DNA from: Coriobacteriia bacterium
GTDB lineage: Bacteria; Actinomycetota; Coriobacteriia; Anaerosomatales; Anaerosomataceae
Reading direction: 5' to 3'
NCBI GenBank assembly: GCA_016926975.1
Contig: JAFGNP010000006.1
Coordinates: 2,696 to 66,695 of the forward strand
DNA length: 64,000 nucleotides
The position numbers were made by a program, and so were the translations under genes. The stretch's first letter is position 1; every line of letters starts with the position of its first letter. The notes under the pieces were generated by a model. The model ran no database searches. It was given only the letters and a program-made list of their open reading frames with translations, and was not told the origin of the DNA. Shown in pieces: positions 17,314 through 39,230 of the stretch.

Positions 17314-20300
17314 CTACGGCCAGGCTGTGTTGTCGTTGGGATGCTTGCCGGAGCTGCACCCGGCGTAGCAGTCGTCTTTCGTCCACCCGAGCGGCGTGTA
17401 GCTCTTAAGACTGAAGTTCACCGTGCCCCAGGTACCTGTGGCCGAGTAGCCGGTCTGCGAGCGCCAGGTAGCGTAGGGGTCCGGGTCCGTCGTGTACCCG
17501 AGAAGTCGGGGTCGCTTCCAGCCGTGAGGGATCCCTACATGGCAGTGCCTGCAGTAGCCGCCCTGGCTGCTGCGGCCTTTGTGCTCATCATGCACGTTGT
17601 TCATAGTCGTGAAGCTGGTGCTGCCATGGCACTTCTCGCAGATGATACCTGCGTTGGCGGTGCCACTGCCGGATCTGCTCATCCCGGTATTCGAGCCTGC
17701 GTTGAGCTGAGGTGTGTTCGTCTCGCCGTCGTAGAAGTTCCACGAGTACGGGTACGCCGGGTCGATGAGCCACTTGGCGCCCGAACCGTGGGGGCCGCGT
17801 GCGTCTGTGGTCGCGGCGCTCATGTGGCAGTCCGTGCAGGTCATCATCGAGTCGGTCGTCCAGGGGGACTTCAGCCACTGAGTGAGTGTCGCCGGCTTCG
17901 ACCAGGTGTAGTTGCTTCCGTTGACCGTGAACGCGGTCTCCATCACCGTCCGCTGCCCGAACACGTTGTGCTCGCTTTGGTTGCTGGGGTTGAACTCGAG
18001 CGCGACGTCGGTGGAAGTGTACGTCCCGGATCCGCTCGTCACCGTGAACGGCTGACCGGAGTAGCTGCTGTGGCATTTCAGGCACAGGTACGCTTCGAAG
18101 TCGGTGGTCTGGCCGGAAAGGCGGATCGGGACCCAGTCGCCGCTTGCCACGGCCGTCCAGTTGCCCGGCCAGGTCTCCACCATCACGCCTCTTGCGCCTC
18201 GGAGGACCTCGCCTGCCTTAGAGTCGTACAGCGTGTGTCTTCCGGCACGCGCTGCGTGCGGGTCGTGGCAGTCCACGCACTCGGAATGGCGGTTGGACTG
18301 GCCGAGTTCCGCGGCGCCCTCGGTGTCGCTGTGCCGGTCTGAATACTCGACCGGGTGGCGGTACGTGGCGGTGAACGCTTCCTGAACGTCCATACCGGTG
18401 CCGGTGAGTGAGTCTATGTTGGGGTGACAGCCTGTGGTCGTACAGGTCGGGGTGCTTCGCTGCGAGGTATGGCAGACGTAGCAGCCCTTCTCCTCTTCGT
18501 AGGTCGTCGAGTCGTCGCGCATGACGGCGATGTGGCCCGCGACTCCCGTGTAGTAGGCCGAGGAGGCGAGCAGACGTGGCTGGTCCGAAGCATGCGGGTC
18601 GTGGCAGCTGTCGCAGCCTGTGGACATGTTGCTCACGCGCGAGTTGGCGTGACCGCTGTTCGCCCACTCGTAGCTTGTCTCCGTTTTGTTCCAGCCTGTG
18701 AAGAACGGCGCGGTGGTGTCCGTGTAGATGTGGAAGCCCACGCTGTAGGGGATGAGGGTTGTGTCCGTCGTGGTGGCTGCGGGCAGCACGCCGTCATGGC
18801 AGACCAGGCAGAACTGGGTGGGCGTCCCCGTGAACGCGTTCAACGTGTTGTCCGGGTCGCTGACGCGGGTCATGTCCCAGGCCGTCGAGCCACCCGTGCC
18901 GACCGTGTGGACGTTGTGGCAGTTGGAGCAAGTGAGCGATCTTGCCGTTTCCCATGCGGACGTCACGGACCACTCGTCCAGGCGCGGGGTGGTACTCGTG
19001 TCGCTAGTGGTGAACAGCCCCACCAGCCGGATCTTCGTGTATGTCTCGACGGAGAATGAGCTCAGATCGGTCGGGCTGTCCGCATCGGTCACCAGATCGT
19101 CCCACTCAGCGCCGTCCCAGCCCTGGACCTTCACCGAGAGGGCGGTGCCCGAAGGCTCGCTCTCGGTCCAGGAGAGGGTCCCCCAGGAGGTCGGGTGAGT
19201 GCTCGGTATGGTGATATCGCTCGTGGTCAGAGTTCCAGAGGTTCGGTAGGCCAGGCCGGTGTAGCTCGGCGGATCGGCGTTGCAGAACGCAATCCCCGCA
19301 CCCGCTCCCTGGGTCCAGGGCGTAGCCGTCAGAGCTTCCCAGGTGCCCCAGTTACCCGCGGTCTCGGCGCCGGACGCCGGGATGGCGATACGGGCCATCG
19401 AGTTGTCGGAGCCGCGGATCGCGTACAGGTAGCCGCCGTCCACCCCGTCCCACGTCAGGTCGCATCCGTCACCCAGGGCCGAGGAGAAGGGGGCGATGTT
19501 GAGGAACGTCGGCACCGGGGTACCGCTCAGACTCGAGACGATCACGGTGTCGTCGTTGCCGGACAAGTCCTTGCCGATCATCATGAGGTACTCGGTGCCG
19601 GCCCCGTCGCGGAAGTGCGCGAGGCGGTTGTAGTAGGTGATGCCGCCGGCGTCGGTGACCTGACGGGTTGAGCTCGTGAAGGTCTGGTTGCCGGTCTTGG
19701 TCGCCGGATTGGACAGGTAGTAGAGGATGCCGTTGCCGGTGCCGCCGTTGCGGTTGACCACGAACAGGCGGTCGGCGCCGGGAGCGTACGCCATGGCGGA
19801 GCCGGCGCCGAGGCTGGCCGTCGAGCCGCCGGGCTGGTAGGTGATGCTGTTGACGGTGGTGCCGGAGTACTGCCACCACTGGATGGCGTTCGTGTTCCCG
19901 CCGCGGTTGATGTAGACCACCGATGAGCCGGAGTTCACCGCGGCCTGTGCGCCGGTGCTGAAGCCGGCGCCGAACGCGGTGATCGCCGCGGGCGCCCACG
20001 TGCCGGTTCCGGAGTTCACGGGCGGGGTGTACTGCCGGATCATTGGGCTGGTGATGCTGTTGCCGCCGCGGATTACATAGACCTTGCCGTTCGCGCTGAA
20101 CAGCGTTGAGCCTGTGGCGGTGCTGAAGCTGTCGTTGGCGGGCGGGTCGAACTTGCCGTAGTTGTTGGCGTTCCACGCGTTGTCGGCAGGCCGATACTGG
20201 TCGAACGTCTGCGCTCCACCGCCGTGAGCGAACAGGTAGCTTTCCGACGAAGGATCGATGGTGTCGGTGTACTGCTCCAGCACGACCGAGTCGGGTATCA

Positions 20301-21690
20301 GGGCGGCGCTCAGCTGATAAGCTGTGTTCGTCTCGAACTCGGCCTGTGTGGTCTGGGTGAATATCGTCCCGCCCGCCTCGACCCAGATCCCGCTGTCGGC
20401 AAGCGTCGGGTGCCTGGACGCCTGCCCGAACTCGGCCTGCATGTCCCGGCCGTTCCAGGCGAAGTTCACGTTGCCCGTCGCCGTACCTGCCGCGACCTCG
20501 GCGGCATAGCCGGCCGCACTGTGGCACTTATAGCAGAGGTAGGACTGCTTGTTCTCTTCCGGGTCGGTCGTACCGCTGCCGCGGTAGTCGATGAGCTTGA
20601 TCGTGGCCGACGCGTGCTTGTTGTGGCAGGCGAGGCACTGCACCGCGGGGTTCGTCGCGGGAGCGTCGTTGGCGAACACGTTGCCCGTGCTGTGAGCCGC
20701 GCCACTGGCATATGTGTGATCGCCGGCAGTATCAGAGTAGATGCCCGAGTCACCCACATAGGAGATCGGTGTGGCATTCGGGCCGTGGCATGCCAGGCAG
20801 AAGCCGATACCCTGCGGGTTGGTCGCCTGGGTGTAGTAGGTGTATGTGGGCGCACCGCCGCTGACGCCGGTCTGCACCCTTAGCATCTTCGGGTAGCTCA
20901 GGGAGGCAACGTAGTTGCCGTCCTTGTCGTAGTAGTACGCGGTGCGGTGCGACGAGTGGCAGGCGTCGCACTCGGTCTCGTCGGTCTCCATCTTCGTGCT
21001 GCGATGCCAGGACGTGAAAGCCGTCTGGCCTTCGTAGTCGCCGAACGCGCGCTGGATGTTCTTGCTGCTCTTGGCGCCGAAGTCCGAGTCTTCGGAAGTC
21101 GAGCCATGGCAGGTGTAGCAGAGCTCGACGTCGTGGTAGTCCCACTCTGCGGGGTACGCGCCGTGGACTTCGTGACACCTGGTGCAGGTGACGGTGTTCT
21201 CGACGTCCCCCACATCACGGTAGCCGTGGACGTTAGGCGCCATGGTCTTGGAGAGGGTGGACACCTCCGTGCCGTCGGTGGCCCGCACCGCATACCACCA
21301 GACGCACGATTGGAGGATCTCGAGCGGATCAGCATCGACCTCGATGCTCGTCTCTTCAGTGGTGCCGACCAGAGTGGCCGAACCTAGATTGGCCGTGGTC
21401 ACGGGCTGCGGCAACCGGTAGACGTTGTAGGTGATCGGGTCCTCATCGGCATCAGTCGAGGCTTCCCACAGCACGCTCACAGACGATCTTGATGCTCCGC
21501 TGACGTGCGCGTCAGTCATGAGAGGCTGCGTCGGGGCGGCGGCATGGGCGAGGGACGGCAAGGCAAGAACACCTGTTGCGACCAGCGCGACAAGCACACT
21601 CATGCAGATGTAGCGCGCGCCACATCTGTGCGGTCTCTTCCGTTCCACTTCCAGTGCCCTTCTGGAATGGCCCATTCGTACCACCATCAC
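17314..21690 (-). CDS. Secreted multihaeme cytochrome c with FN3-like domain and a large haem-free propeller/jelly-roll insert
   Basis: 1458 aa with a signal peptide (VLVALVATGVLALPSLAHA). It carries 15 CxxCH motifs plus one CxxxxCH: 6 in residues 169-390 and 9+1 in residues 921-1400. Residues 391-920 have no haem motif. The exact start is uncertain (GTG 21690, ATG 21687 or internal Met). Confidence 0.85.
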   Translation of the reverse strand: MMVVRMGHSRRALEVERKRPHRCGARYICMSVLVALVATGVLALPSLAHAAAPTQPLMTDAHVSGASRSSVSVLWEASTDADEDPITYNVYRLPQPVTTANLGSATLVGTTEETSIEVDADPLEILQSCVWWYAVRATDGTEVSTLSKTMAPNVHGYRDVGDVENTVTCTRCHEVHGAYPAEWDYHDVELCYTCHGSTSEDSDFGAKSSKNIQRAFGDYEGQTAFTSWHRSTKMETDETECDACHSSHRTAYYYDKDGNYVASLSYPKMLRVQTGVSGGAPTYTYYTQATNPQGIGFCLACHGPNATPISYVGDSGIYSDTAGDHTYASGAAHSTGNVFANDAPATNPAVQCLACHNKHASATIKLIDYRGSGTTDPEENKQSYLCYKCHSAAGYAAEVAAGTATGNVNFAWNGRDMQAEFGQASRHPTLADSGIWVEAGGTIFTQTTQAEFETNTAYQLSAALIPDSVVLEQYTDTIDPSSESYLFAHGGGAQTFDQYRPADNAWNANNYGKFDPPANDSFSTATGSTLFSANGKVYVIRGGNSITSPMIRQYTPPVNSGTGTWAPAAITAFGAGFSTGAQAAVNSGSSVVYINRGGNTNAIQWWQYSGTTVNSITYQPGGSTASLGAGSAMAYAPGADRLFVVNRNGGTGNGILYYLSNPATKTGNQTFTSSTRQVTDAGGITYYNRLAHFRDGAGTEYLMMIGKDLSGNDDTVIVSSLSGTPVPTFLNIAPFSSALGDGCDLTWDGVDGGYLYAIRGSDNSMARIAIPASGAETAGNWGTWEALTATPWTQGAGAGIAFCNADPPSYTGLAYRTSGTLTTSDITIPSTHPTSWGTLSWTESEPSGTALSVKVQGWDGAEWDDLVTDADSPTDLSSFSVETYTKIRLVGLFTTSDTSTTPRLDEWSVTSAWETARSLTCSNCHNVHTVGTGGSTAWDMTRVSDPDNTLNAFTGTPTQFCLVCHDGVLPAATTTDTTLIPYSVGFHIYTDTTAPFFTGWNKTETSYEWANSGHANSRVSNMSTGCDSCHDPHASDQPRLLASSAYYTGVAGHIAVMRDDSTTYEEEKGCYVCHTSQRSTPTCTTTGCHPNIDSLTGTGMDVQEAFTATYRHPVEYSDRHSDTEGAAELGQSNRHSECVDCHDPHAARAGRHTLYDSKAGEVLRGARGVMVETWPGNWTAVASGDWVPIRLSGQTTDFEAYLCLKCHSSYSGQPFTVTSGSGTYTSTDVALEFNPSNQSEHNVFGQRTVMETAFTVNGSNYTWSKPATLTQWLKSPWTTDSMMTCTDCHMSAATTDARGPHGSGAKWLIDPAYPYSWNFYDGETNTPQLNAGSNTGMSRSGSGTANAGIICEKCHGSTSFTTMNNVHDEHKGRSSQGGYCRHCHVGIPHGWKRPRLLGYTTDPDPYATWRSQTGYSATGTWGTVNFSLKSYTPLGWTKDDCYAGCSSGKHPNDNTAWP

Positions 21691-22496
21691 TGCAAAACCT
21701 GTACCAATTGCACGAATCTCAGGTCTGGCGTCGCGTCATCCAGCGATGTCAGGTACCAGCGCCCGTCCACATAGCGCATCGCGACCGGGATCGTGTGTTC
21801 GGATATGAGCCCCGCATCTCGCCACTGCAGCTGGCTGTACGCAATGTAGATTGTAGCGTCGTTCACGGTGAAGATGTTGACGCAGCAACCGGGAGCCGAA
21901 GTGAGGATGGGCGGGTACCGCTCGGCTATGTATTCGATGTATGTGGTCTGAGAACCTTCATCCGGAGCCAGGAAGTCGGCAAGTGCTTCGGCATCCCTTG
22001 CGGATAGAGCTTCGACTATCGCGGCCACCATCGCCCTGACGGCGTCAGGGTTCGACTGTACGTTCCTCCTGGTCTCCTCCAAGTACTCTGACTGGTCGTC
22101 CGTGATCTCGTGGGGACTCGAGGATTGAGGAGGTATTCCTTCATCCGGGATGGCTGGGGTGTCTTTCACGGCGTAGCGGCGCTTCCTGGCGGCTACATCT
22201 TCGGGTGTGGATGTCTCTTCCACAGGTTCGCCTGTCTCAGGATCGAGAGCGGACCCTCCTTCGGACTCGCCGTCGCCTTCCAGGACCTTGGGGAGGAAGA
22301 CATCGGGGATGTGCAGTTTGGGTGAGTCGCCGTCTCCGGCGGTGAGCGAGAAGAAGGCCACCGCTCCCACGACAAGCAGCAGCGCCAGAGTAGCCAAAAC
22401 AGGCCATCGCGAACGCGTAGCCAACTGGTGTCCTTTCCGTATGCGTCCTTCTAGCGAATCTATCGGACGATTACGGTCACAGCAGTAGCAGTACAA
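21687..22496 (-). CDS. Membrane-anchored hypothetical protein upstream of the cytochrome
   Basis: 269 aa with one TM (WPVLATLALLLVVGAVAFFSL), an acidic Pro/Glu linker, and a C-terminal globular domain of about 120 aa (weakly NTF2/SnoaL-like by pattern). Its stop overlaps the cytochrome start (GTGA). Confidence 0.5.
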   Translation of the reverse strand: MYCYCCDRNRPIDSLEGRIRKGHQLATRSRWPVLATLALLLVVGAVAFFSLTAGDGDSPKLHIPDVFLPKVLEGDGESEGGSALDPETGEPVEETSTPEDVAARKRRYAVKDTPAIPDEGIPPQSSSPHEITDDQSEYLEETRRNVQSNPDAVRAMVAAIVEALSARDAEALADFLAPDEGSQTTYIEYIAERYPPILTSAPGCCVNIFTVNDATIYIAYSQLQWRDAGLISEHTIPVAMRYVDGRWYLTSLDDATPDLRFVQLVQVLQ

Positions 22497-22599
22497 TCCA
22501 TATTAATCCCCAGGAAGTGCCTGCTCTAAGCGTCGGCAGGGTGCTGTACGCAGTTCGTCTGGACGATTCCGGCCGGCCGCGCGAGCGCGCCTCCGTCGG

Positions 22600-22628
22600 T
22601 TGCGCCCTGGTGAGGACCGTGTTAGAGT
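22600..22628 (+). promoter_or_regulatory. Putative sigma-70-type promoter of the tRNA gene
   Basis: TTGCGC (22600-22605), a 17-nt spacer, then TAGAGT (22623-22628), ending 11 nt before the tRNA 5' end. Confidence 0.45.
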
Positions 22629-22639
22629 GACTTTCCCGT

Positions 22640-22716
<77 letters not shown>

Positions 22717-22805
22717 ACATATCCGCAGGTCCTGGGCTCAAAGCGCCCGGGGCCTGTTTCGTTGTCGGGGCAAACGGGAGCATCTGAGAGTGTGGGGTGA
22801 AAGCG

Positions 22806-24970: not shown

Positions 24971-25981
24971 ATGATCAAGGTCGCTGTGTGGGGAACGGGC
25001 ATGATGGGCCAGGGGCTACTCGGCTACATCCTCGATCGTCCCCGGCAACTCGAGCTTGTCGGCGCCATCGTCACTAACCCCGCCAAGGAGGGCAGGCGAG
25101 TTGGCGAGCTGCTCGACAGGGATTGCGACGTCCGCATGATCACCGATGCCCAGGCGGTACTCGGCCAGCAGCCTGAAGTCGTCTGCATCTGCACGCAGAG
25201 CAACCTCAGCGAGGTCTCCGATCAGATCGGGGCGTGCGTGCGTGCCGGATCCAACGTGCTCTGCATCGCCGAGAAGCTGGCGTACCCGTGGGCGAGCGAT
25301 CCGGATTGGGCCGACAGGTTCGAGGAGCTCGCGGTCGAGCACGACGTCTCCGTGCTGGGCACGGGCATCAACCCCGGCTTCATCCTGGACGCGCTCATCG
25401 TGATGTGGACCTCGGTCTGTCTCAGAGTCGATCGTATCGAGGCGCAGCGCGTGAACGACCTGTCGCCGTTCGGTCCCACTGTCATGGCGAGCCAGGGCGT
25501 GGGGACGACAGTCGCCGAGTTCGAGGTCGGTGTGGCCGACGGCACGATCGTGGGGCACATGGGTTTTCCCGAGTCGATCAACCTCATAGCCGACGCGCTG
25601 GGTTGGGAGATAGACGACATCCGGGAGACGCGGGAGCCGATCGTGACCGGCGTGGAGCGCTCTACGCCGCACGTTCACGTGAACCCGGGTGACGTGTGCG
25701 GATGCCGGCACATCGGCCGTGGCTACAGCAAGGGTGAGCTCAAGATCGAGCTGGTGCACCCGCAGCAGATCCATCCGGGGCTGGAGGGCGTCGAGACGGG
25801 CGACTACATACATATCTTCGGCGACCCCGAGGTGCACATGGCCAACTCGCCGGAGATCCCCGGTGGCAAGGGGACGTACGCGAGCACCGGCAACTACATC
25901 CCGCTGATAGTCGATGCTCCCGCGGGGATACTTACAGTGACCGATCTGCCCGTACCGCGGTTCTGGGCGCCAGAGGCGTAG
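24971..25981 (+). CDS. ord: 2,4-diaminopentanoate dehydrogenase
   Basis: 336 aa. N-terminal Rossmann fold MIKVAVWGTGMMGQG of the DapB-like amine dehydrogenase family. Located directly upstream of ortA/ortB. Confidence 0.75.
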   Translation: MIKVAVWGTGMMGQGLLGYILDRPRQLELVGAIVTNPAKEGRRVGELLDRDCDVRMITDAQAVLGQQPEVVCICTQSNLSEVSDQIGACVRAGSNVLCIAEKLAYPWASDPDWADRFEELAVEHDVSVLGTGINPGFILDALIVMWTSVCLRVDRIEAQRVNDLSPFGPTVMASQGVGTTVAEFEVGVADGTIVGHMGFPESINLIADALGWEIDDIRETREPIVTGVERSTPHVHVNPGDVCGCRHIGRGYSKGELKIELVHPQQIHPGLEGVETGDYIHIFGDPEVHMANSPEIPGGKGTYASTGNYIPLIVDAPAGILTVTDLPVPRFWAPEA

Positions 25982-26036
25982 GCGGACGAAGACGCCGCCC
26001 GCAACCGGGACGGCCGGAAGAGAGAGGGAGAGCGCC

Positions 26037-26390
26037 GTGCCAGACGCGTTCCGCTGCAGCGCCGGCGATTGGGTGGAGGTGGAGTACGTTCTCCTCCAGC
26101 CTGCCGAGCGCGCCTCCGGACTTCCGGCGGACACCGCTGCACAGCCGCTGCGTGCGTGGGTGAAGGGCTTCGCTCTCGCCGGGGGCATGATCGGCGACGA
26201 GGTCGAAATCGAGACGATGACCGGCCGAAAGGTGCGAGGGCGTCTCTCGGCTGTGAGCCCCGGCTACTCGCACACTTTCGGCACGCCGCTGCCGGAGATA
26301 GTCGGAATCGGCCGGGACTTGCGCGCGCGCGTCGCCGCGTACCGCGCGGCCACGCCAGGTGTACGCGTCGACCCCGAGGCGGGTGAGTGA
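26037..26390 (+). CDS. ortA: 2-amino-4-ketopentanoate thiolase alpha subunit
   Basis: 117 aa with GDWVEVEYVLL.P.ER...LP.DT...PL..WVKGF and SPGY.H.FG, as in OrtA. GTG start with GAGGGAG upstream. Confidence 0.75.
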   Translation: MPDAFRCSAGDWVEVEYVLLQPAERASGLPADTAAQPLRAWVKGFALAGGMIGDEVEIETMTGRKVRGRLSAVSPGYSHTFGTPLPEIVGIGRDLRARVAAYRAATPGVRVDPEAGE

Positions 26391-26391
26391 C

Positions 26392-27804
26392 GTGGCCTCC
26401 CGCTACGAGCAGGTGATGGCGCGCAAGGGCGAGATCATGAAGAGCGCGCTGGGCATGGACTACGCGCAGTTCGAGCGCAGTCCCATCGCTTTCGACTACG
26501 AGGGCATGATGGGCGCGCACGGCTACACTCTCGAGCAGATCCGGAGCATCCAGCGCGCCGCTGGTGTGGGACTGACGCCGCTGCTCGAACTTCGCAATCT
26601 CACGGATCTCGTGCGCTCCTATGCGGGACCGGGCCGTGGCGCGCGGCTGTTCGTGAAGGACGAGGCCGCCAACATGGCCGGCTCGTTCAAGGACCGCCGG
26701 GCGTCGATGAGCATCCACGTGGCGGCCGAGAAGGGGTACGCAGGAGTGATCGCGGCCACCTCCGGCAACTACGGCGCGGCGGTGGCAAGCCAGGCGGCGC
26801 GTGCCGGCCTGAAGTGCATCATCTGCCAGGAGACCTTCGACTCGCGCCACGTCGGCCAGCCGGAGATCGTCGAGAAGTCCCGCATCTGCGAGGCGTTCGG
26901 CGCCGAGGTCATTCAGATGACCGTGGGTCCCGAACTCTTCTTCCACATGCTCGAGCTTCTGGAACAGACCGGCTATCTTTCGGCATCGCTGTACTCGCCG
27001 TTCGGCGTGTCGGGCATCGAATCGCTCGGTGCGGAGCTGGCCGAGGAGATGACGGCGCTCACGGGCTCTCCGCCCACGCATGTGGTGGTGACGCACGCCG
27101 GCGGCGGGAACACCACGGGCACCGCGCGCGGCCTGAAGCGGATGGGCGCGAGGACTGAGATCGTGAGTGCGAGCGTGGACCTGTCGGGACTCCACATGGC
27201 GAGTGACACCGACTTCAACCGCAAGAGCTTCACCACCGGGCACACCGGCTTCGGAGTGCCGTTCGCCACGTGGCCGGACCGCGCCGACGTGCCCCGCAAC
27301 GCCGCGCGCTCGCTTCGCTACATGGATCGCTACCTCATCGTCACTCAAGGCGAGGTCTTCTACGTCACCGAGGCGCTCTCGAAGCTGGAGGGACTCGAGC
27401 GCGGGCCGTCCGGCAACACCGCGATGGCGGCGGCGATGTCGCTCGCGAGAGACCTGCCGCAAGACGCCACCGTGGTGGTACAGGAAACCGAGTACACGGG
27501 CGCAGGCAAGCACCACTGGAGCCAGCTGGCGTTCGCGCGCGAGCAGGGCATCGAAATGCGGGCCGGGAACCCAGCCGAGAACGCGCCCGGTAAGGCGATC
27601 GTGATCCCCGAGCGTCCCGAGCAGATCGCTGCGACGGACTTCGACCTCGGCAAGATGCGCCGGTCGTACGTGCGTAACGCGTTGCAGCACGCGCCGGAGG
27701 GTTACGAGCCGACGCCCGAGGACACGGTGTTCCTCGCCGAGGACACCAACACCACGCCGGCGATAGTCGAGGAGATCATCGCCGGGCTCCGGGCCGGTCA
27801 GTAG
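26392..27804 (+). CDS. ortB: 2-amino-4-ketopentanoate thiolase beta subunit (PLP-dependent)
   Basis: Trp-synthase-beta-like fold with the PLP lysine in NMAGSFKDRRAS. Follows ortA. GTG 26392 (1 nt after the ortA stop) is preferred, but 26359 and 26383 are also possible. Confidence 0.8.
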   Translation: MASRYEQVMARKGEIMKSALGMDYAQFERSPIAFDYEGMMGAHGYTLEQIRSIQRAAGVGLTPLLELRNLTDLVRSYAGPGRGARLFVKDEAANMAGSFKDRRASMSIHVAAEKGYAGVIAATSGNYGAAVASQAARAGLKCIICQETFDSRHVGQPEIVEKSRICEAFGAEVIQMTVGPELFFHMLELLEQTGYLSASLYSPFGVSGIESLGAELAEEMTALTGSPPTHVVVTHAGGGNTTGTARGLKRMGARTEIVSASVDLSGLHMASDTDFNRKSFTTGHTGFGVPFATWPDRADVPRNAARSLRYMDRYLIVTQGEVFYVTEALSKLEGLERGPSGNTAMAAAMSLARDLPQDATVVVQETEYTGAGKHHWSQLAFAREQGIEMRAGNPAENAPGKAIVIPERPEQIAATDFDLGKMRRSYVRNALQHAPEGYEPTPEDTVFLAEDTNTTPAIVEEIIAGLRAGQ

Positions 27805-27832
27805 GGGGCGCGCTCCCGGGAGGAGGCCGGTC

Positions 27833-28465
27833 ATGATCTTCGTCGCGTTGGCTGCTCTGGCAGGCTCAGCCCTGATGTCCTACGCGATCGGCTACGCCTT
27901 CATCGCGCCACGGGACGCATTCGTCCGATCGAAGCGCGGTGTGTTGCTGATCGTGGTGGGCGGGCTCAGCTTGATCTTCCTGCCGCCGCAGGTCACCGGG
28001 CTGGACGCGGTAGGCGGGACTGTCGCGGCCACATACGGCCTATCCGGCGCCTTCAACTGGCCCGAGTCGCTGAGCAAGGGCGCGTACCTTGTCGTCTGGG
28101 GCGTAACCTCGATCGTCGCGCTGCTTGCGGGCATGCGCATCTGGGCGGCAGGCTCGCCCGACTGGCGTGCCGGATCGCGAGCGTACGATGCTTCAGCAGC
28201 CAGCCGCGTGAACAGCTTGCTGCCGCTTGCGGACACGCTGCCCGACGCGCTCGACGTGCTTGCGCGCGCAGGCATGAGCGAGCGAGATGTCGGCCGGGCC
28301 GCCGGAGACATCCGCGAGGCAGGCCGACGGCTGGCCGATGCCTTGCCACCGAGTGACGGTGCGCTCTACGCGATGGCAGCTGCGAAGATGCCTGCCGGGT
28401 TGGCCGGGCCGGTTACCGGCTACCTGCTCGAAGGCGCAGGACGACGTGCCGGTGTGAGGGGTTGA
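27833..28465 (+). CDS. Membrane protein of unknown function (paralogue A of 42144..42731)
   Basis: 210 aa with 3-4 TM segments followed by a soluble helical tail. Clear similarity to the 195-aa ORF at 42144 (SYAIGYAF/SYVVGYAF, LPLADTLPDALDVLAR/LPLADSLQDALDVLAR, YAMAAA..VTGYLLEGA/YAMVAS..VTGLLLQGA). Confidence 0.6.
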   Translation: MIFVALAALAGSALMSYAIGYAFIAPRDAFVRSKRGVLLIVVGGLSLIFLPPQVTGLDAVGGTVAATYGLSGAFNWPESLSKGAYLVVWGVTSIVALLAGMRIWAAGSPDWRAGSRAYDASAASRVNSLLPLADTLPDALDVLARAGMSERDVGRAAGDIREAGRRLADALPPSDGALYAMAAAKMPAGLAGPVTGYLLEGAGRRAGVRG

Positions 28466-28592
28466 GGCAGGAGTGCAGTGGTATTCGGAGAACACATAAG
28501 CAAAGGCGGGACTTCGCGGTAGCGCTTCGCTGCCGGCGTTCAGTCCCCGGGATTTGACTGTTCTTCCAGGGGCGTTGTTGAAGGAGGCTGTT

Positions 28593-29129
28593 ATGCGCTG
28601 CGACAAGAGACTGGTGGTCCTAGCCCTCGTGCTCGCGAGCATGTTGGTGTTGGTGGGCTGCGGATCGGAAGCCGCCACCGATACGGCAGAAGAGACTCAG
28701 GCGAGCGCTGGCGACGTCGCCGCGCTGCCCGAGGTCGATGCAGTCGCCTCCAAGACCGGTTGGGCGCTTATGCAGGAAAAGTGTACGGTCTGCCACCCGA
28801 TTGCCACAGTCAATGAGGCCAGACTCAGCTGGGAAGAGTGGAAGACGGCCGTAGGTCACATGCTCGACAACGGCGCCACTCTGACCGATGCCGAGCAGCA
28901 GGCGGTACTCGAGTACCTGAGGACCAGGGACGAGGTCTTCGCCACCGGACCGTCGGTCTTCCAGCAGGAGTGCATGGTCTGCCACACCACGCAGCGCGTG
29001 AACGAAGCGGCATACGACTGGACCGGTTGGGAGACCGCCGTAGACCACATGATCGCGAACGGTGCCCAGATCGATCAAGCGCGCAGGGCTGTGATCGTCG
29101 AGTACCTGGCGATACGCGGGCCGCAGTAG
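28593..29129 (+). CDS. Dihaem c-type cytochrome lipoprotein
   Basis: ATG 28593 with AAGGAGG upstream. Lipobox LVGC. Two copies of a roughly 65-aa unit, each with CxxCH (CTVCH, CMVCH) followed by R.S/Y.W..W..AV.HM..NGA.....E/R...V.EYL. Confidence 0.75.
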   Translation: MRCDKRLVVLALVLASMLVLVGCGSEAATDTAEETQASAGDVAALPEVDAVASKTGWALMQEKCTVCHPIATVNEARLSWEEWKTAVGHMLDNGATLTDAEQQAVLEYLRTRDEVFATGPSVFQQECMVCHTTQRVNEAAYDWTGWETAVDHMIANGAQIDQARRAVIVEYLAIRGPQ

Positions 29130-29187
29130 GCTCAGGGTCTCATTCGCCGAATATCGGCCGTTACGACACGGGGCGTTCGCGCCGCGG

Positions 29188-30204
29188 CTAGACGAGCAGT
29201 CCGCCGAAAGCGTTGAACGCGTAACCGATCGCGAGGATACCGGTCACGACCAGCCCGAAGAACGTGGCCAGAAGCGGCGTCTTCACGACCTTCTTCAACA
29301 TCACGAGGGATGGCAGCGAGAGCGCCGTGACCGCCATCATGAACGCGAGCGCGGTGCCGATGCCCACGCCCTTGGCCACGAGCGCCTCGGCTATCGGAAG
29401 GGTGCCGAAGATGTCGGCGTACATCGGCACGCCCACGAGTGTGGCGAGCACCACCGAGAACGCGTTCTTCTCGCCCAGAACGGCAGCCACCCACTCGGCC
29501 GGTATCCATCCGTGGATGATGGCGCCTATGCCCACTCCGGCCAGCACGTACAGCCAGACCCGTTTCACGATGTCGGTCACTGCCTGCCAGCCGAAGGCGA
29601 TGCGGTCGCGGCGTGTCATCTCGGGCAACTCGGCATCCGCCAGGTGCGCGCCGTACACGAACGGTTCCACGAACCGCTCGAGTTTGAGCGCGCTGATGGT
29701 GGAGCCGCCGATGATGGCGAGCACCAATCCGGTGATCACGTAGGCGGCGGCGATCTTCCAGTTGAAGATGCTTGCCAGCAAGATGACTGAGGCGAGGTCC
29801 ACCAGCGGCGAGCATATGAGGAACGAGAACGTCACGCCGATAGGAAGACCCGCCGAGGTGAACCCGATGAAGAGCGGGATCGACGAACACGAGCAGAACG
29901 GCGTCAGAGTGCCGAGCAGCGCGCCGAGGGTGTTCGCTCCGATGCCGCTGAAGCGGCCGAGGATACGCTTGGTGCGCTCGGGAGGGAAGTAGCTCTGCAC
30001 GTACGAGATGGTGAAGATGAGCACCGAGAGCAGTACGAAGATCTTCACGACGTCGTAGACGAAGAACTGGATGCTCGCGCCCAGGCGTTCGTCCAACGGC
30101 AGGCGGAGCACGTTCTCGACGAACGCGCCAACCAGGTCGTTGAGCCAGAGCATCTTCAGGAGCTGGTCGTTCATCCAGGCGAACATGTCTGCAGCGCACC
30201 CCAT
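29188..30204 (-). CDS. Permease of the DUF318/ArsP-like family
   Basis: About 338 aa, polytopic, with the TPFCSCSSIP motif typical of this family. Only the 3' part of track ORF 29188..30927 is used. The start is ATG 30204 or 30186. Confidence 0.75.
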   Translation of the reverse strand: MGCAADMFAWMNDQLLKMLWLNDLVGAFVENVLRLPLDERLGASIQFFVYDVVKIFVLLSVLIFTISYVQSYFPPERTKRILGRFSGIGANTLGALLGTLTPFCSCSSIPLFIGFTSAGLPIGVTFSFLICSPLVDLASVILLASIFNWKIAAAYVITGLVLAIIGGSTISALKLERFVEPFVYGAHLADAELPEMTRRDRIAFGWQAVTDIVKRVWLYVLAGVGIGAIIHGWIPAEWVAAVLGEKNAFSVVLATLVGVPMYADIFGTLPIAEALVAKGVGIGTALAFMMAVTALSLPSLVMLKKVVKTPLLATFFGLVVTGILAIGYAFNAFGGLLV

Positions 30205-30248
30205 CCTGTCCTGCGAACTCTCCCTCTTGTGCTGCCGGTACTCTCTCC

Positions 30249-30276
30249 ATATACTTCGATGAGTATCGAAGTATAT
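30249..30276. promoter_or_regulatory. Perfect 12-4-12 inverted repeat in divergent promoter region (candidate ArsR operator)
   Basis: ATATACTTCGAT gagt ATCGAAGTATAT is AT-rich in a GC-rich genome. It lies between the divergent permease and DUF2703 genes. Confidence 0.45.
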
Positions 30277-30295
30277 TCTGTCGCAGTATACACGA

Positions 30296-30805
30296 ATGCC
30301 GGGTGGCGCAAGCGCCACGATGGGGCGGGAGTTCCGATCGTTCGAAGGAGGCCTTGTGAGCTGTGGTTGTAGCGGGCCGGTGAAGGTGCTCGTCGAGTTG
30401 GAGTACCTGGTGGTAGACGGTTCTACTTGCGAGCGCTGCGGCAGCACTCGCGAGGCGGTCCGGGCCGCAGTGACCGACGCGCGGGCGCTGTTCTCCTCAG
30501 CCGCTGTCGAGCTGGAGCTTGTCGAGCGCGAACTGGGAGCTTCGGAACTCGGGGACTCGAACCGGGTGCTGGTGAACGGTCGGCCCGCCGAGGAATGGCT
30601 GGGTGGTCGCTCGGTGATGACCGAGTGCGTCTCCTGCAGCGATATGCTCGGCACTGCGGTGTCCTGCAGGGAGGTCGAGGTGGGCGGGGTCCGCACCGAG
30701 GCGGTCGGTCGGGACGTAGTCTTCGACGCGATCATCGCGGCGTCCGGGACCGCTGCCGTCGGTGAGCCCACTGTTACTCTCGTCGGAGGGCCGGGGTGCG
30801 GTTGA
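30296..30805 (+). CDS. DUF2703 domain protein
   Basis: The pattern VELEYLVVDGSTCERCGST ... VLVNGRP.E ... ECVSCSDMLG..VSCREVEV matches the Cys pattern I recall for DUF2703, a family often linked to arsenic/redox loci. Start uncertain. The terminal TGA is discussed in findings. Confidence 0.6.
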   Translation: MPGGASATMGREFRSFEGGLVSCGCSGPVKVLVELEYLVVDGSTCERCGSTREAVRAAVTDARALFSSAAVELELVERELGASELGDSNRVLVNGRPAEEWLGGRSVMTECVSCSDMLGTAVSCREVEVGGVRTEAVGRDVVFDAIIAASGTAAVGEPTVTLVGGPGCG

Positions 30806-30871
30806 GGAGGAGACTCGTGCGACCCCGGTCCGGAGGTCGAGTTCGTGGGGCCCGAAGGCGCCACATGAGAC

Positions 30872-31129
30872 ATGCCGTCGGCGTGGCGTGTCCGCGTCGT
30901 CGAGAAGCGGCTTGAGAGCGTAGGCATCCGCGCGCTGGTGAGCGAGCGCGATGTCTACGCGCTTGATTCGGCCGACCGCGCGGCGGTGTTGGACGTCCTC
31001 GTCGGGGCCGAAGCATCCTTCCCGATGGTGCTCGTGAACGGGGCGGTCGTCTGTCACGGAGGAGTGGATCTGGATGCCGTCGCACGCAGCCTGCAGCAAG
31101 GACCCGCAAGTGCCGGCCGCTGTTGCTGA
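30872..31129 (+). CDS. Small thioredoxin-fold-like protein (ATG-bounded minimum; may extend upstream through TGA 30866-30868)
   Basis: 85 aa with SFPMVLVNGAVV (a cis-Pro strand pattern) and a C-terminal CC. No good RBS precedes ATG 30872. A GGAGG-spaced GTG lies at 30845, but an in-frame TGA intervenes. Confidence 0.35.
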   Translation: MPSAWRVRVVEKRLESVGIRALVSERDVYALDSADRAAVLDVLVGAEASFPMVLVNGAVVCHGGVDLDAVARSLQQGPASAGRCC

Positions 31130-31433
31130 GCTGGTAGCCGAAGAGCAGCTCGATGTCGCTCTCAAGGCGCTCGCCTCGGCACAGCGCCGCGAGATAGTGC
31201 GCTTCCTGCTTGCGAGTTGTGCAGCCGCAGGCAAGACCTGTTGTGCGGCCGACGAAGTGTGCGCGTGCAAGCTCTCGGAACACCTCGGTCTTGCCGCGTC
31301 GACGGTCTCTCACCACATGACTGCGCTGAAGGACGCCGGTATCGTGACGGCGCGCAAGGACGGCACCTGGGTCTACTACACGGTGCAGCGCGACGTGCTC
31401 CGTGCGGTGGCCGGATCGATCGAAGGGTTGTAG
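31074..31433 (+). CDS. ArsR/SmtB family metalloregulator
   Basis: LASAQRREIVRFLL ... CACKLSEHLGLAASTVSHHMTALKDAGIV..RKDGTWVYY is a winged-helix ArsR pattern with a Cys cluster before the recognition helix. The start is uncertain (overlaps the previous ORF). Confidence 0.8.
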   Translation: MPSHAACSKDPQVPAAVAELVAEEQLDVALKALASAQRREIVRFLLASCAAAGKTCCAADEVCACKLSEHLGLAASTVSHHMTALKDAGIVTARKDGTWVYYTVQRDVLRAVAGSIEGL

Positions 31434-31466
31434 CGGCCGTAACAGGCTCGACCGGGAAGGGACTGC

Positions 31467-31712
31467 GTGAGGGAGATCAAGATCCTCGGCACGGGATGTG
31501 CCAAGTGCAAGCAGCTGGAGAAGACGGTGCGCGAGGCGGTCGACGAGATGGGCCTCGACGCGTCGGTAGAGAAGGTCACCGAGCTCACCGACATCATGTC
31601 GTACGGCATCATGTCCACGCCCGGTCTGGTGGTCGACGGCGAAGTGCGCCTCTCCGGACGCCTACCCAAGGTCTCCGAGGTCAAATCGATCCTAGAGCGT
31701 GCGGGAGCCTAG
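31467..31712 (+). CDS. Thioredoxin-fold redox-active disulfide protein 2 family
   Basis: 81 aa reading MREIKILGTGCAKCKQLE...STPGLVVDGEV. This is the usual partner of ArsR and DUF318 permeases. Confidence 0.8.
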   Translation: MREIKILGTGCAKCKQLEKTVREAVDEMGLDASVEKVTELTDIMSYGIMSTPGLVVDGEVRLSGRLPKVSEVKSILERAGA

Positions 31713-31713
31713 C

Positions 31714-32196
31714 GTGAGCGACGAGCGGGCCGAGGGTGCGATGCCTCAAACGGAGGCCGCTCCTGTGGCCTGGCGCCGGGGCAGGCTCCGGGTCGCGCTG
31801 ATCGCGCTGACGGTTATCGCGGTCGTCGGTGTCGCGGCGTTCCTCTCCGCCGAGGGCCCGGAGTCTCCTGCGCCTACGGGTGGTCCCTCGGTCACACTCG
31901 ACGCGGCGCTCGCCGCGGGGGAGCCTGTCTACATCCTCATTCACTCGCTCACTTGAGCCTCCTGCACCGAGCTCGCGGCGGTCGCTGCGGAGGTCATGCC
32001 CGAGTACGAGGGCCGCATCGTATACGTAGATGTGGTGACCAGCGAGCCTTCGGCCCGGCCGGTCCTCGAGCGCTACCCCACGCGGTACATCCCGACCTCG
32101 GTGTTCGTAGGCGCTGACGGTGCGGTGGTGGAGACCGTGATGGGCCCGCTGACCGAGGCGGGACTTCGGACGCGTTTGGACGTGCTCGCCGAGTAG
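31714..32196 (+). CDS. Membrane-anchored thioredoxin-like protein with in-frame TGA (candidate Sec, UxxC) at 31954-31956
   Basis: Track ORFs 31699..31956 and 31996..32196 are in the same frame. Joined, they read PVYILIHSLT-TGA-ASCTELAAVAAEVMPEYEGRIVYVDV..YIPTSVFV. This aligns residue for residue with the CPFC thioredoxin-like lipoprotein at 63420. N-terminal TM anchor. Start GTG 31714 has GGGAG upstream. Confidence 0.6.
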
Positions 32197-32320
32197 CCGC
32201 CCGATTTGGAGGGGCTGCCTGCGCCAGCGCTACCCTCCTGGGGAATATTCGCACTACCTGTATGTACGGTGGTGCGCTGGCTCTGGGTCCGCCTTGCGAA
32301 CGCGTCCGGTGCCGCTATGC

Positions 32321-32349
32321 TTGCATAAGAGATGATGCAGACTGCATAG
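32321..32349 (+). promoter_or_regulatory. Conserved upstream motif, copy 2 (before oraS)
   Basis: TTGCATAAGAGATGATGCAGACTGCATAG has the same two half-sites and the same 21-nt register as 24925-24953. The second half-site starts 29 nt before the oraS ATG. Confidence 0.45.
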
Positions 32350-32370
32350 GCCGATCGGGGAGGAGCACGA

Positions 32371-32733
32371 ATGGCACGCGAGGACACGTTCGCGGAGGCG
32401 CGCAAGCATCTCGAAGGCCTGACCGACTCCGAGCTCGAGGCTCGCTTCTGGGAGCTGTCCGGGCAGTGCGTTGACCCGATGGTCGAGCTCGCTCGCACGC
32501 ACACGTCTCCCTCGATCGAGCGTAGCGTGCTCATGCGCATGGGAATCGACTCCCTGACCTGCAAGGCCGTGGTGGCCGAGTGCGAGGCGCGCGGTCTGCT
32601 GGGGCATGGTGCAGGTCACGTGATGCTTCTGGCTATGCGCGGGCTCGGTGTGGACGCACCAAGCGCGGCTGCGCGCCTGGCGGCAGGCGAGGGCTGGGAG
32701 TTCGCCGAGTCGAAGTGGGATGACGGGCGATGA
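32371..32733 (+). CDS. oraS: D-ornithine 4,5-aminomutase small subunit
   Basis: 120 aa with F.EAR.HL..L.D.ELE.RFWEL and PSIERSVLMRMG, as in OraS. Overlaps oraE (ATGA). Confidence 0.8.
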   Translation: MAREDTFAEARKHLEGLTDSELEARFWELSGQCVDPMVELARTHTSPSIERSVLMRMGIDSLTCKAVVAECEARGLLGHGAGHVMLLAMRGLGVDAPSAAARLAAGEGWEFAESKWDDGR

Positions 32734-34988: not shown

Positions 34989-35225
34989 GGGGCGTCTGCC
35001 GCGACGATGTCCTCCAACTTGTTTTTCTCCGTCGGCACCTCTGCTTCATGGATGCGCGACCAGGCTCGCTTCAGATACCATGCCGCCACCGTAACTGCCG
35101 GTGCAAAGGGACTGTCTCGCCTGGGAGTATCGCGGTCTCATGGGCTGTCTGGAGAGTTGATGGTGTCGGACGGTATCCGATAGTGGGCGAGAACGCGGTA
35201 CGATTCAGATGCGAGAAGGAGTGAC

Positions 35226-35993
35226 ATGCGGCCCACAGAGTCGGCAGAAGCGCGCCTCACCATCGTCTACGACAACGACGGTCCGGTGTCCGGGTCGACT
35301 CCGACCGATCCCGCGTTGCGGACCGGATGGGGCTTCTCGTGCTTTGTCGAGGCCGAAGGGATAAGGCTTCTCTTCGACACGGGTGGCGATGGACCGACAC
35401 TTCTGGGGAACATGGCTGCTCTTGGTGTGGACTCTGCATCCATCGACATCCTAGTGCTCTCGCACGAGCACAGCGACCATGTGGGCGGTCTGAGCGCGCT
35501 TCTCGATGAAGGTGCGCGGCCGGTCGCATATGTGCCGCGGTCGTTCTCAGCGGCGTTTCGCGAGACCCTGTCCGCGCGAATCCCGGTCGTGGAGGTCAGT
35601 GGGCCGACCGAGATCGTTCCGGGTGTGCGCACGACAGGCGAGGTGGGGTCGGCGATCGTGGAGCAGTCGCTGGTCTTGGAGACCGGGGAAGGCCTTGTGT
35701 TGATCACTGGTTGCGCGCATCCCGGGATAGTCGAGATCGTCCGTTCGGTGGCCGAGTCAGGTTCGATCTGCCTGGCCGTCGGGGGTTTTCACCTGAAGGA
35801 CCAGGATGTCGCCCGGTGTCACGAGGTCGCCGGGCAGCTCCGGGCGCTCGGTGTGGGGCGGGTCGCGCCCACACACTGCACCGGCGAGACAGGTGTGAGC
35901 AGTCTCGAGGCGGGATTCGGAGACCGTTGCATCCGAGTCGGCCTCGGCTCTCGTATCAGCATCGGTGTCGGCGAGAGACCACCAGATGTCTGA
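35226..35993 (+). CDS. MBL-fold metallo-hydrolase
   Basis: LSHEHSDHVGG (HxHxDH) with later His/Cys ligands. It resembles the MJ0301-like MBL subgroup. Confidence 0.7.
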   Translation: MRPTESAEARLTIVYDNDGPVSGSTPTDPALRTGWGFSCFVEAEGIRLLFDTGGDGPTLLGNMAALGVDSASIDILVLSHEHSDHVGGLSALLDEGARPVAYVPRSFSAAFRETLSARIPVVEVSGPTEIVPGVRTTGEVGSAIVEQSLVLETGEGLVLITGCAHPGIVEIVRSVAESGSICLAVGGFHLKDQDVARCHEVAGQLRALGVGRVAPTHCTGETGVSSLEAGFGDRCIRVGLGSRISIGVGERPPDV

Positions 35994-37332: not shown

Positions 37333-37395
37333 CGGGCGCAGTTCCCGCGCCGTATTTGCTACTCTCTAGGTGTCCGCCTGTCCGAGGAGCTGTCC

Positions 37396-38052
37396 TTGAG
37401 CGACCTGTTCTGCAATTCGTGCGGTGCTCCCAGAACGCCAGGTGAGTCCTTCTGCACCGCGTGCGGTTCGCGCTTGGATCCGGTGACGCCGGGGAAGCGC
37501 TCCCGGTCGCGGGCGGTGGCGTTCGGGTGTCTCGCCTTGGTGCTTGCCTGCTCTCTGAGTTGTGGCGCGGTGTTCCTGCTCGGCTCGAGAAGCGGTGGTG
37601 GCGGAGGGCTGTCGGCGGACCAGAAGCGTGTGGCCGAGGAGTTCGGCCTGCCGCGCACGTTCTCGGTGGTGATCGGTGAGGATGTGGAGGGCGCGCTCGA
37701 GGGCGGCGACCTGGACGTCCACCGCATCGAGACGTGGGACTACCACGAGATGGGTACGAGGTTCGTGTTCCGCGACGGCGCCGTCGTGGGCACGCGCGAC
37801 ATCAGCGTGCTCGATCCGGCAGCCTTCGCCTATCCCGCCATCTCTCCGGCGTCATTCTCGGAAGGCATGTCTCCCGACGATGTCAGCGAGCTGCTCGGCG
37901 GAGAACCCGGCGGCGAGGCTACGCTCAGCGCCGGGTTGGGTGAAGAGGTGCGCACGCTTGTCTGGAGCGGCGTGGTGTCGTGTACGTTCGTGGACGGCGA
38001 GCTTGCCGTGGTCGAGACGGCTCCGCTGCAGATCGCGGAGGTGGCCCGATGA
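37396..38052 (+). CDS. Zinc-ribbon membrane-anchored protein (hypothetical)
   Basis: N-terminal FCNSCGAP..FCTACGS double CxxC, one TM segment, then an extracytoplasmic domain of about 140 aa. TTG start. Confidence 0.55.
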   Translation: MSDLFCNSCGAPRTPGESFCTACGSRLDPVTPGKRSRSRAVAFGCLALVLACSLSCGAVFLLGSRSGGGGGLSADQKRVAEEFGLPRTFSVVIGEDVEGALEGGDLDVHRIETWDYHEMGTRFVFRDGAVVGTRDISVLDPAAFAYPAISPASFSEGMSPDDVSELLGGEPGGEATLSAGLGEEVRTLVWSGVVSCTFVDGELAVVETAPLQIAEVAR

Positions 38053-39176: not shown

Positions 39177-39230
39177 CGGCGCTTCCCGGGGCGGGTACAC
39201 TCGTGTTGCCGGGCTGCCGAGGGGAGACCG

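Follow-up and report, generated by a model that had tools for sequence, protein, structure and literature searches.

A 15-haem cytochrome and an NTF2-like membrane protein form a candidate electron-transfer module in the wall zone of Coriobacteriia

How electrons pass the thick, non-conductive wall of Gram-positive bacteria is known in outline from a few Firmicutes, and essentially not for Actinobacteria. This question is raised by a gene pair in a stretch of 64,000 nucleotides (the window) from a Coriobacteriia bacterium of the order Anaerosomatales (contig JAFGNP010000006.1, positions 2,696 to 66,695). There, a gene for a large multihaem cytochrome (17314..21690, minus strand, abbreviated (-) below) directly follows a gene for a small membrane protein (21687..22424, -), which we call the partner. 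An earlier note, made from the sequence alone, had described a secreted cytochrome with roughly 16 haems that is coupled to this membrane protein. On balance and with moderate confidence, we read the locus as a two-component, membrane-tethered electron-transfer module of the wall zone in monoderm anaerobic Coriobacteriia. Its role in extracellular electron transfer is inferred from the resemblance of the family to known cytochromes and from the physiology of the lineage.

The cytochrome gene is a maximal uninterrupted open reading frame (ORF) with 1458 codons from the first GTG. It is intact, and its G+C content at third codon positions (GC3) is 0.85, like that of the other genes in this window of 65% G+C. 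A regular-expression count agreed with the 15 CxxCH motifs and the single CxxxxCH given in the earlier note, whereas 2000 shuffled versions of the protein contained 0.03 CxxCH on average and two at most. The motifs are arranged in two groups, six at aa 169-390 and nine together with the CxxxxCH at aa 921-1384, and six of them have the form CxxCHxxH. For comparison, about 100 relatives of the cytochrome were collected. An alignment of 25 members shows no variation at any of the 15 CxxCH or at 19 further histidines, and the latter suffice to provide a second axial histidine at every haem, so that the haems are probably bis-His coordinated. The CxxxxCH (CTTTGCH, aa 1083-1089; 18424..18444, -) may be a 16th haem site but lacks conservation across the family: it was found in about 13 of 47 relatives and varies with lineage. 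Thus 15 of the roughly 16 haems supposed before are invariant and the last is optional.

A CxxCHxxH followed by a plain CxxCH occurs six times in succession, and three single motifs follow. By this order the cytochrome looks like six di-haem units with a terminal triplet, and a large non-haem insert stands exactly between units 3 and 4. The N-terminal hexahaem block (aa 160-430; 20401..21213, -), delimited by PF22113 and the invariant Cys and His residues, comprises three CxxCHxxH/CxxCH pairs; the C-terminal block (aa 916-1458; 17317..18945, -) contains nine invariant CxxCH in the alignment, three pairs and three singles. The pairing of motifs noticed earlier is reflected in the Pfam profile Paired_CXXCH_1 (PF09699), which matches with E 4.6e-23 and 81.1 bits against a curated cut-off of 20.6. 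TIGR01905 reaches 44.7 bits (cut-off 25.2), and the Pfam profile Mtrc-MtrF_II-IV_dom matches the whole cytochrome above its curated cut-off with E 2.1e-13. With the blocks searched separately, PF22113 covers the N-terminal one from profile position 6 to 171 of 176 (37.7 bits, cut-off 30) and the C-terminal one in three partial stretches (33.2 bits). The profile searches proposed in the earlier note thus gave matches above the cut-offs for PF09699, TIGR01905 and PF22113. By these profiles the protein is a multihaem c-type cytochrome of the doubled-CXXCH class with predicted haem loading, and its N-terminal block is judged homologous to the pentahaem domain II/IV of MtrC and MtrF. Searches of all PDB chains with phmmer and with the family profile gave no informative match for the haem core; no MtrC-family chain was among the matches of the cytochrome, OcwA did not match, and NrfA appeared only with E 0.56. 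A characterised full-length homologue, which the earlier note had named as a possible objection, was found neither among PDB sequences nor in the literature searched.

The only hydrophobic segment of the cytochrome, aa 26-50, ends in LAHA↓AAPTQP, and the cleavage junction AxA↓A(T/V)PT is common to all full-length homologues. The N-region and a Sec-type signal peptide (aa 1-50, predicted cleavage AHA↓AAP; 21541..21690, -), proposed before, are thereby supported, and on these features the protein is predicted to be exported by Sec. The identical NCBI protein (JXA36_00465, 100% identity, labelled 'hypothetical protein') has 1401 aa and begins with MTDAHV; because all full-length homologues share the junction, this start removes the signal peptide. 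In this region (21517..21690, -) the public annotation thus records an exported protein as if it were cytoplasmic. The true start is likely the ATG at 21675, which gives 1453 aa. It lies 15 nt downstream of the first GTG, is preceded by GGTGG, and appears at least as likely as the GTG. The overlap of partner and cytochrome genes by GTGA, as reported earlier, holds with the first GTG and is lost with the ATG; with either start the gap is 11 nt or less.

Behind the signal peptide follows an FN3 module (aa 51-155; 21226..21540, -). A family profile (A7, aa 51-160) matches the FN3 domain of Bacillus circulans chitinase A1 (1k85) with E 2.9e-4, and residues 3-101 are aligned end to end with residues 3-84 of 88. 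The whole-family profile recovers the same module, although Pfam fn3 is not triggered by the single sequence. The FN3-like module of the earlier note is therefore substantiated, and the same is true of the lack of an anchor: motif and Pfam scans of the cytochrome found no LPxTG, SLH, CWB2 or lipobox, and its signal peptide contains no Cys. The nearest lookalike of LPxTG is IPASG at aa 770, in the middle of the protein. At two loci with 15-haem paralogues that have no adjacent partner (L022:10832-13423 and L038:10240-13380), the convergent neighbours are large surface proteins with three CWB2 domains each, which also carry FG-GAP/cadherin-like or CarboxypepD_reg repeats. These Coriobacteriia thus use CWB2 anchoring, which the cytochromes do without.

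The insert between the haem blocks (aa 431-915, 485 aa; 18946..20400, -) was overlooked in the earlier note and is the most unusual feature of the cytochrome. An AlphaFold2 (AF2) run on residues 425-1458 with a 42-sequence alignment modelled it as all-beta, a beta-propeller followed by a beta-sandwich, with a predicted local confidence (pLDDT) of 90-98. Counted from the strand order, the propeller probably has six blades; BLAST found no internal repeats in the insert, and the blades are visible only in the model. Foldseek against the PDB returned beta-propellers with E 5e-9 to 1e-6, including the Kelch domains of LZTR1, KLHDC2 and NS1-BP, the YWTD domains of LRP4/6 and megalin, sialidases and GH43 enzymes, as well as propeller-plus-sandwich proteins such as phage tail nozzles. 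Independently, the whole-family profile matches the Kelch protein 9tsn (E 2.5e-4). Pfam Kelch_1 stays under its cut-off on the insert (E 0.054), and YWTD, sialidase and GH43 propellers score equally well. Structure prediction, as proposed in the earlier note, was thus informative for the insert and gave low confidence for the C-terminal haem block, as expected for a model without haems.

The point of insertion, after haem 6 and before haem 7, is fixed throughout the family. The length of the insert ranges from 0 (in forms of ~940 aa) over ~330, ~420, 520-560 (the class of the present gene) and 720 to ~1040-1050 aa, and about half of the orthologous cytochromes have none. Among the forms of 1400 and 1950 aa the inserts share 33-67% identity, on par with the haem blocks, and from this conservation the insert is judged to be under purifying selection. 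A fast-evolving spacer was ruled out, as the conservation equals that of the haem blocks. When 17317..21540 (-) was compared with four relatives (P0002, P0005, P0024 and P0028), a mosaic emerged. The half with FN3 and hexahaem block is closest to the insert-less proteins of ~940 aa (58-60% identity), and the half with insert and C-terminal block is closest to P0002 and P0005, proteins of 1400 and 1950 aa (57-67%). This pattern suggests recombination at the splice point after haem 6.

The upstream gene, announced as a 269-aa membrane protein with an acidic linker and a small globular domain, is real and conserved in this layout, but its product has 245 aa. The start is a TTG, codon 25 of the 269-codon ORF, with GGAAAGGA upstream, and the resulting length agrees with NCBI JXA36_00470 and with all homologues. 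About seven cytoplasmic residues precede a single transmembrane (TM) helix (aa 8-28; 22341..22403, -), which is helical in the AF2 model and corresponds to a conserved hydrophobic stretch in two alignments (A1 and A5). With so few cytoplasmic residues, a signalling role is excluded. A linker of 76 aa (aa 29-104; 22113..22340, -) follows, disordered by its pLDDT below 50 and acidic and proline-rich (17 D+E, 7 K+R and 11 P); in an alignment of 26 sequences both its sequence and its length differ between species.

The C-terminal domain of ~140 aa (aa 105-245; 21690..22112, -) was modelled as alpha+beta at a pLDDT of ~90, with helices in residues 109-169 and strands in residues 173-242. Nearly all of its best 50 Foldseek matches in the PDB are NTF2-like (probability ~1, E ~2e-3, TM-score ~0.5 on the target), among them ketosteroid isomerase (KSI), the CaMKII hub, RsgI9, the VirB8-like OrfG/TcpC and the N-domain of PBP2a. 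We are confident, on the basis of this model, that the ectodomain has an NTF2-like fold. The same fold recurs among the matches as a membrane-proximal scaffold in envelope proteins of monoderms (OrfG/TcpC, the PBP2a N-domain and RsgI9). By sequence, the partner has no match in Pfam, NCBIfam or the PDB, apart from TIGR02246 below threshold. Word-index searches returned only three and six homologues, while an exhaustive search of 1.84 billion representative proteins with a hidden Markov model (HMM) defined a family of 65 clusters, nearly all of 215-290 aa and with the same layout. Twelve residues are invariant: Y114, D155, E156, P171, T191, Y193, W201, D203, S208, H210, R217 and W223.

Are the two genes coupled, as the earlier note had supposed? 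A scan of one genome per species gave 75 loci, nearly all from metagenome-assembled genomes (MAGs) of environmental Coriobacteriia, and synteny was determined by HMM searches over 81 fetched loci. The partner adjoins an orthologous cytochrome in 27 loci of different species-level genomes, with cytochrome identities down to ~37%. In 25 of them it lies directly upstream, and a gene for an NlpC/P60 peptidase and/or TldD (then PmbA) follows downstream, except at L035, where the short contig stops with the cytochrome. Farther upstream the DNA varies and encodes a Na/Ca exchanger, a molybdopterin oxidoreductase with cytochrome b, or a NiFe hydrogenase. In two loci the arrangement is changed: the pair stands in an unrelated context (L048), or the order is swapped with the partner directly downstream of the cytochrome (L050). 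NlpC/P60 is absent from both of these and from L041. Among the 81 loci, 15-haem paralogues (33-38% identity) have no adjacent partner, even in the cassette-bearing genomes UBA2272, UBA2286 and Anaerosomatales Yes46-06. Since the pairing survives rearrangement and is limited to one orthologous group, it points to functional coupling and not to inherited gene order. The partner accompanies insert-less and insert-bearing cytochromes alike and must therefore recognise the conserved core. The FN3 module was ruled out as a partner-specific docking site, as the partner-less paralogues have it too.

The carriers of the cytochrome are MAGs of environmental Coriobacteriia (Anaerosomatales and relatives), and 15-haem relatives with 31-34% identity occur in Firmicutes (P0049, P0051 and P0052). 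Relatives of the cytochrome sit in classical Gram-positive electron-transfer clusters. In a Desulfitobacteriaceae MAG (L006), one is surrounded by several cytochromes, NHL propellers, TPR proteins and two ResB/ResC pairs. A locus of a Coriobacteriia MAG (L013:1750-16137) encodes an NHL propeller, a 7-haem cytochrome, a 15-haem paralogue of 1884 aa with an N-terminal extension, ResB, ResC and a cytochrome with at least 29 haems, whose gene runs off the locus.

In the module that we favour, the Sec-exported cytochrome would receive 15 covalent c-type haems, probably bis-His coordinated, and possibly a 16th in the present lineage; their attachment would be the work of a System II (ResBC) apparatus with its genes elsewhere. 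The partner would hold the anchorless cytochrome at the cell envelope, and the haem chain would relay electrons between donors on the membrane side and insoluble acceptors or donors outside the cell, for instance Fe(III) minerals, electrodes or partner cells. The propeller/sandwich part may bind a wall glycopolymer or an external substrate, and in its fused form it could play the role that separately encoded NHL propellers have in other clusters. An extended linker of 76 residues spans up to ~25 nm by chain geometry, and the 20-haem chain of MtrCAB is ~18 nm long; by these lengths, a 15-haem chain could span a considerable portion of a thin Gram-positive wall. The NlpC/P60 peptidase may help insertion into the peptidoglycan, a link that is weak because the gene is not retained in the rearranged loci.

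A more far-reaching version is tentative, and we regard it as rather unlikely: the partner, the cytochrome and possibly NlpC/P60 would constitute a dedicated, lineage-specific conduit across the wall, equivalent in monoderm actinobacteria to what porin-cytochrome complexes are in Gram-negatives. An NTF2 'socket', rooted in the membrane and borne by a flexible leash of ~25 nm, would then hold a 15-haem wire in the peptidoglycan, the exchangeable propeller/sandwich cassette would dock this wire to wall polymers, mineral or electrode, and the hydrolase would open the wall for insertion.

For the favoured wall-zone module, the physiology of the lineage gives a suitable background. In accordance with the Gram-positive look that the earlier note had ascribed to the genome, cultured Anaerosomatales (OPB41) are Gram-positive, and they encode 17-18 multihaem cytochromes (PMC9686372). 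Parvivirga hydrogeniphila, with 17 of them, is an obligate Fe(III) reducer that respires ferrihydrite; the present family was not singled out in that work (PMC9686372). Coriobacteriaceae sp. EMTCatB1 dominates an electromethanogenic biocathode (PMC7943316) and carries the cassette (L008). In its transcriptome tldD is 1d0623 (PMC7943316), and by the gene order around it 1d0620 would be the orthologue of the cytochrome and 1d0619 that of the partner. Accepting this assignment, the family is expressed, constitutively and modestly. The remark that such cytochromes are barely characterised in actinobacteria was fair, although the multihaem cytochromes of the present lineage have already been reported on at the level of genomes and transcriptomes (PMC9686372, PMC7943316).

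Several points weigh against an electron-transfer module of this kind. The contact of partner and cytochrome is deduced from gene linkage only, and the low-confidence model of the haem block gives no support for a continuous haem chain or for its length. In the window there is neither a neighbouring cytochrome linked to quinol or hydrogenase nor a further gene of the multihaem kind, and maturation genes could not be recognised in it. Anaerosoma tenue, with a similar inventory of cytochromes, does not reduce Fe(III) (PMC9686372). In EMTCatB1 the inferred orthologue 1d0620 is transcribed at a modest, unregulated level of ~67-83 transcripts per million (TPM), unlike 1d0898 and 1c0642, the proposed electrode-contact cytochromes of this strain, which are induced 10-17 fold (PMC7943316). 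The hypothetical gene 1d0619, the presumed partner, has TPM values of 2908, 1874 and 1412 (PMC7943316), and neither gene responds to cathodic current. The mRNA of the presumed partner thus exceeds that of the cytochrome by ~20-35 times, which misfits a simple 1:1 operon product. As the sole expression data, these values give no backing to the stoichiometric partner suggested in the earlier note. In L008 a gap of ~200 nt separates 1d0619 and 1d0620, and it may hold a terminator or an attenuator.

The modest and constitutive transcription would suit a different function. Instead of a conduit to insoluble acceptors, the cytochrome could be a redox enzyme of the wall zone or a store of electrons, working on soluble substances (sulfur species, chelated metals, humics or nitrogen oxides), with the propeller in a substrate-binding or catalytic role. 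The pairing of propeller and sandwich is typical of glycosidases and sialidases, there are weak motif-level matches to OTR, NrfA and HAO, and Anaerosoma, with its many multihaem cytochromes, uses sulfur compounds for respiration and not Fe(III) (PMC9686372). The haem motifs speak against such an enzyme, as no CxxCK or other atypical catalytic haem motif occurs in the cytochrome and the invariant histidines are enough for bis-His ligation at all 15 haems. Moreover, the insert cannot be a core catalytic site when about half of the orthologues are without it, and no significant match to a known enzyme family was obtained. We consider such an enzyme unlikely.

The excess of partner mRNA also bears on the tether itself. 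It would be understandable if the partner were an assembly or export chaperone or scaffold, or a wall-remodelling mate of NlpC/P60, in which case its place beside the cytochrome would reflect an envelope process common to both; the NTF2-like TM proteins VirB8, TcpC and OrfG are indeed assembly scaffolds. NlpC/P60 (15957..17207, -), a peptidoglycan endopeptidase with a PcsB-type coiled coil according to Pfam and NCBIfam, follows the cytochrome in most of the loci in which the partner lies upstream, and in the present window no minus-strand terminator was found in the 106-nt gap between them. Yet the pair persists without NlpC/P60 and TldD in L041, L048 and L050, and the ~65 uniform clusters of the partner match the narrow spread of the orthologous cytochrome. 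In the window and the syntenic loci there are no genes of a type IV secretion system (T4SS), so the context of a VirB8-like scaffold is not given, and no division context lies nearby. A role other than that of a tether is therefore doubtful, and the functional membership of NlpC/P60 in the cassette is uncertain. In one MAG (L004:15433-16943) an AbiEi/AbiEii toxin-antitoxin pair stands between NlpC/P60 and TldD, which means that the downstream block is not an indivisible operon.

To our knowledge, known nanowire subunits have 4-8 haems and no accessory domains. That the cytochrome polymerises into extracellular conductive nanowires like OmcS, OmcE or OmcZ is highly improbable. In its favour are a weak profile match to OmcE (7tfs, E 0.076, ~30 residues) and the appendages that Parvivirga forms only with ferrihydrite (PMC9686372). 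The match, however, falls short of significance and extends over a single haem motif, and a ~150-kDa subunit with FN3 and propeller is unlike the known ones. The appendages, with a reported width of 0.8-0.9 nm, are far thinner than any cytochrome filament.

A membrane-tethered module in the wall zone can be compared with several known systems. The decahaem cytochromes MtrC, OmcA and MtrF of Shewanella resemble the present one in the pentahaem domain profile, which the N-terminal block matches almost end to end, in the alternation of haem blocks with all-beta domains, in their extracytoplasmic location and in packing motifs of the CxxCHxxH type. They differ in having 10 haems (5+5) and not 15 (6+9), in their beta domains, which are split beta-barrels I and III in place of FN3 and propeller/sandwich, and in a lipoprotein anchor, where the present cytochrome is without lipobox. 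No MtrA- or MtrB-like genes occur in the window; a porin partner of the MtrAB kind is missing because the host is monoderm.

OcwA and related proteins are members of the NrfA/OTR lineage. With the surface cytochromes of Firmicutes, namely OcwA of Thermincola, OmhA and SmhA-C of Carboxydothermus and CFE_2239 of Carboxydocella, the present protein shares Sec export and a monoderm host without porins, and these proteins too have been proposed as carriers of electrons through the wall or at it. In CFE_2239 the haem domains are likewise fused to an adhesin-like non-haem part (PMC6085454). OcwA has nine haems (PMC7829351), and the numbers for the others are 11 (OmhA), 8 (SmhA), 12 (SmhB), 7 (SmhC) and 17 (CFE_2239) (PMC7829351, PMC6085454). 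By haem number and architecture, the Smh and Omh proteins of Carboxydothermus and CFE_2239 were ruled out as characterised orthologues. For none of the Firmicute proteins has a membrane partner of the NTF2-like type or a propeller within the chain been reported.

A six-bladed type of propeller in company with multihaem cytochromes is found in the NHL proteins of electron-transfer clusters (UetHI of Tenderia and Gallionella, DFE_0451 and DFE_0463 of Desulfovibrio ferrophilus, and the loci L006 and L013). NHL proteins are recurrent companions of cytochromes for extracellular electron transfer, and their function has been left unexplained (PMC10734462, PMC9769857). They are separately encoded, whereas the present propeller is fused into the cytochrome between haems 6 and 7 and is Kelch- or YWTD-like and not detectably NHL. 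The partner, finally, carries a TM helix at its N-terminus and, on the extracytoplasmic side, an NTF2-like domain of a kind that serves the docking of proteins or ligands, as do OrfG/TcpC, PBP2a with its N-domain and RsgI9 of monoderm envelopes. There is no sequence similarity to these proteins, and the T4SS, the transpeptidase and the anti-sigma domain or context that go with them are absent from the partner. It is further set apart by its long disordered linker and by its invariant set (PDE, W-D-G-S-H-T, R and W).

Turning to the remainder of the window, the upstream border of the cassette is marked by a tRNA-Met gene (22640..22716, +) and a strong terminator-like hairpin behind it (22725..22757, +). 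As these bound the cassette, its promoter must lie within 22425..22640. A scan of the cassette region for sigma-70-like promoters found none, which is uninformative for this phylum. Genes were called by GC3, and the window encodes a V-type ATPase operon, TldD/PmbA, an ornithine-fermentation cluster, FdhE, a secreted thioredoxin and an ABC importer.

The dihaem lipoprotein mentioned in the earlier note was recovered by ORF and Pfam analysis as a class-I cytochrome c (28554..29129, +) with the lipobox LVGC and two CxxCH. It may possibly serve as membrane-side electron donor to the large cytochrome. Its setting is odd for a cytochrome, as it is embedded in the ornithine-fermentation cluster (24971..40295), which includes genes for 2,4-diaminopentanoate dehydrogenase, a pyridoxal phosphate (PLP) enzyme, D-ornithine aminomutase, a MutL-type reactivase and a racemase. 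Two small membrane proteins of no family (27833..28465, + and 42144..42731, +) are paralogues with 34% identity (E 6e-33), and one of them is encoded directly upstream of the lipoprotein. The gene that had been called CcmC-like (51938..52576, +) encodes a polytopic membrane protein of 212 aa. The name was not upheld, as the protein shows only a WWD-like motif, IWGGILWNEPRL with flanking His, which resembles the tryptophan-rich WWD motif of CcmC and CcsA, and the ORF has no match in Pfam, NCBIfam or the PDB. The ORF may encode a haem-handling protein that has diverged very far, or the resemblance may be due to chance. At the edge of the window a thioredoxin (63378..63872, +), secreted or a lipoprotein, lies by FdhE (61735..62634, -). 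Possibly this thioredoxin is a thiol reductase of the ResA type that serves cytochrome maturation, with more genes following outside the window.

Multihaem cytochromes in the present lineage and the concept of Gram-positive wall cytochromes have already been published. Undescribed so far are the invariant 15-haem plan shared with Firmicute relatives, the fixed splice point with exchangeable propeller cassettes and the dedicated NTF2-like membrane partner. Public annotation, where the gene bears the label 'hypothetical' or 'cytochrome c3 family' and a truncated start hides the signal peptide in the present case, is corrected by our analysis. The cytochrome family is widespread in Coriobacteriia of subsurface, hot-spring, aquifer and bioelectrochemical habitats, including the lineages of an obligate Fe(III) reducer and of a dominant biocathode organism. 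If the reading given here is true, biochemistry and cryo-EM would have a concrete target in a conserved minimal unit of two genes, an anchor and a 15-haem wire, and the natural variants with and without the binding cassette would help to dissect the contact to wall or mineral.

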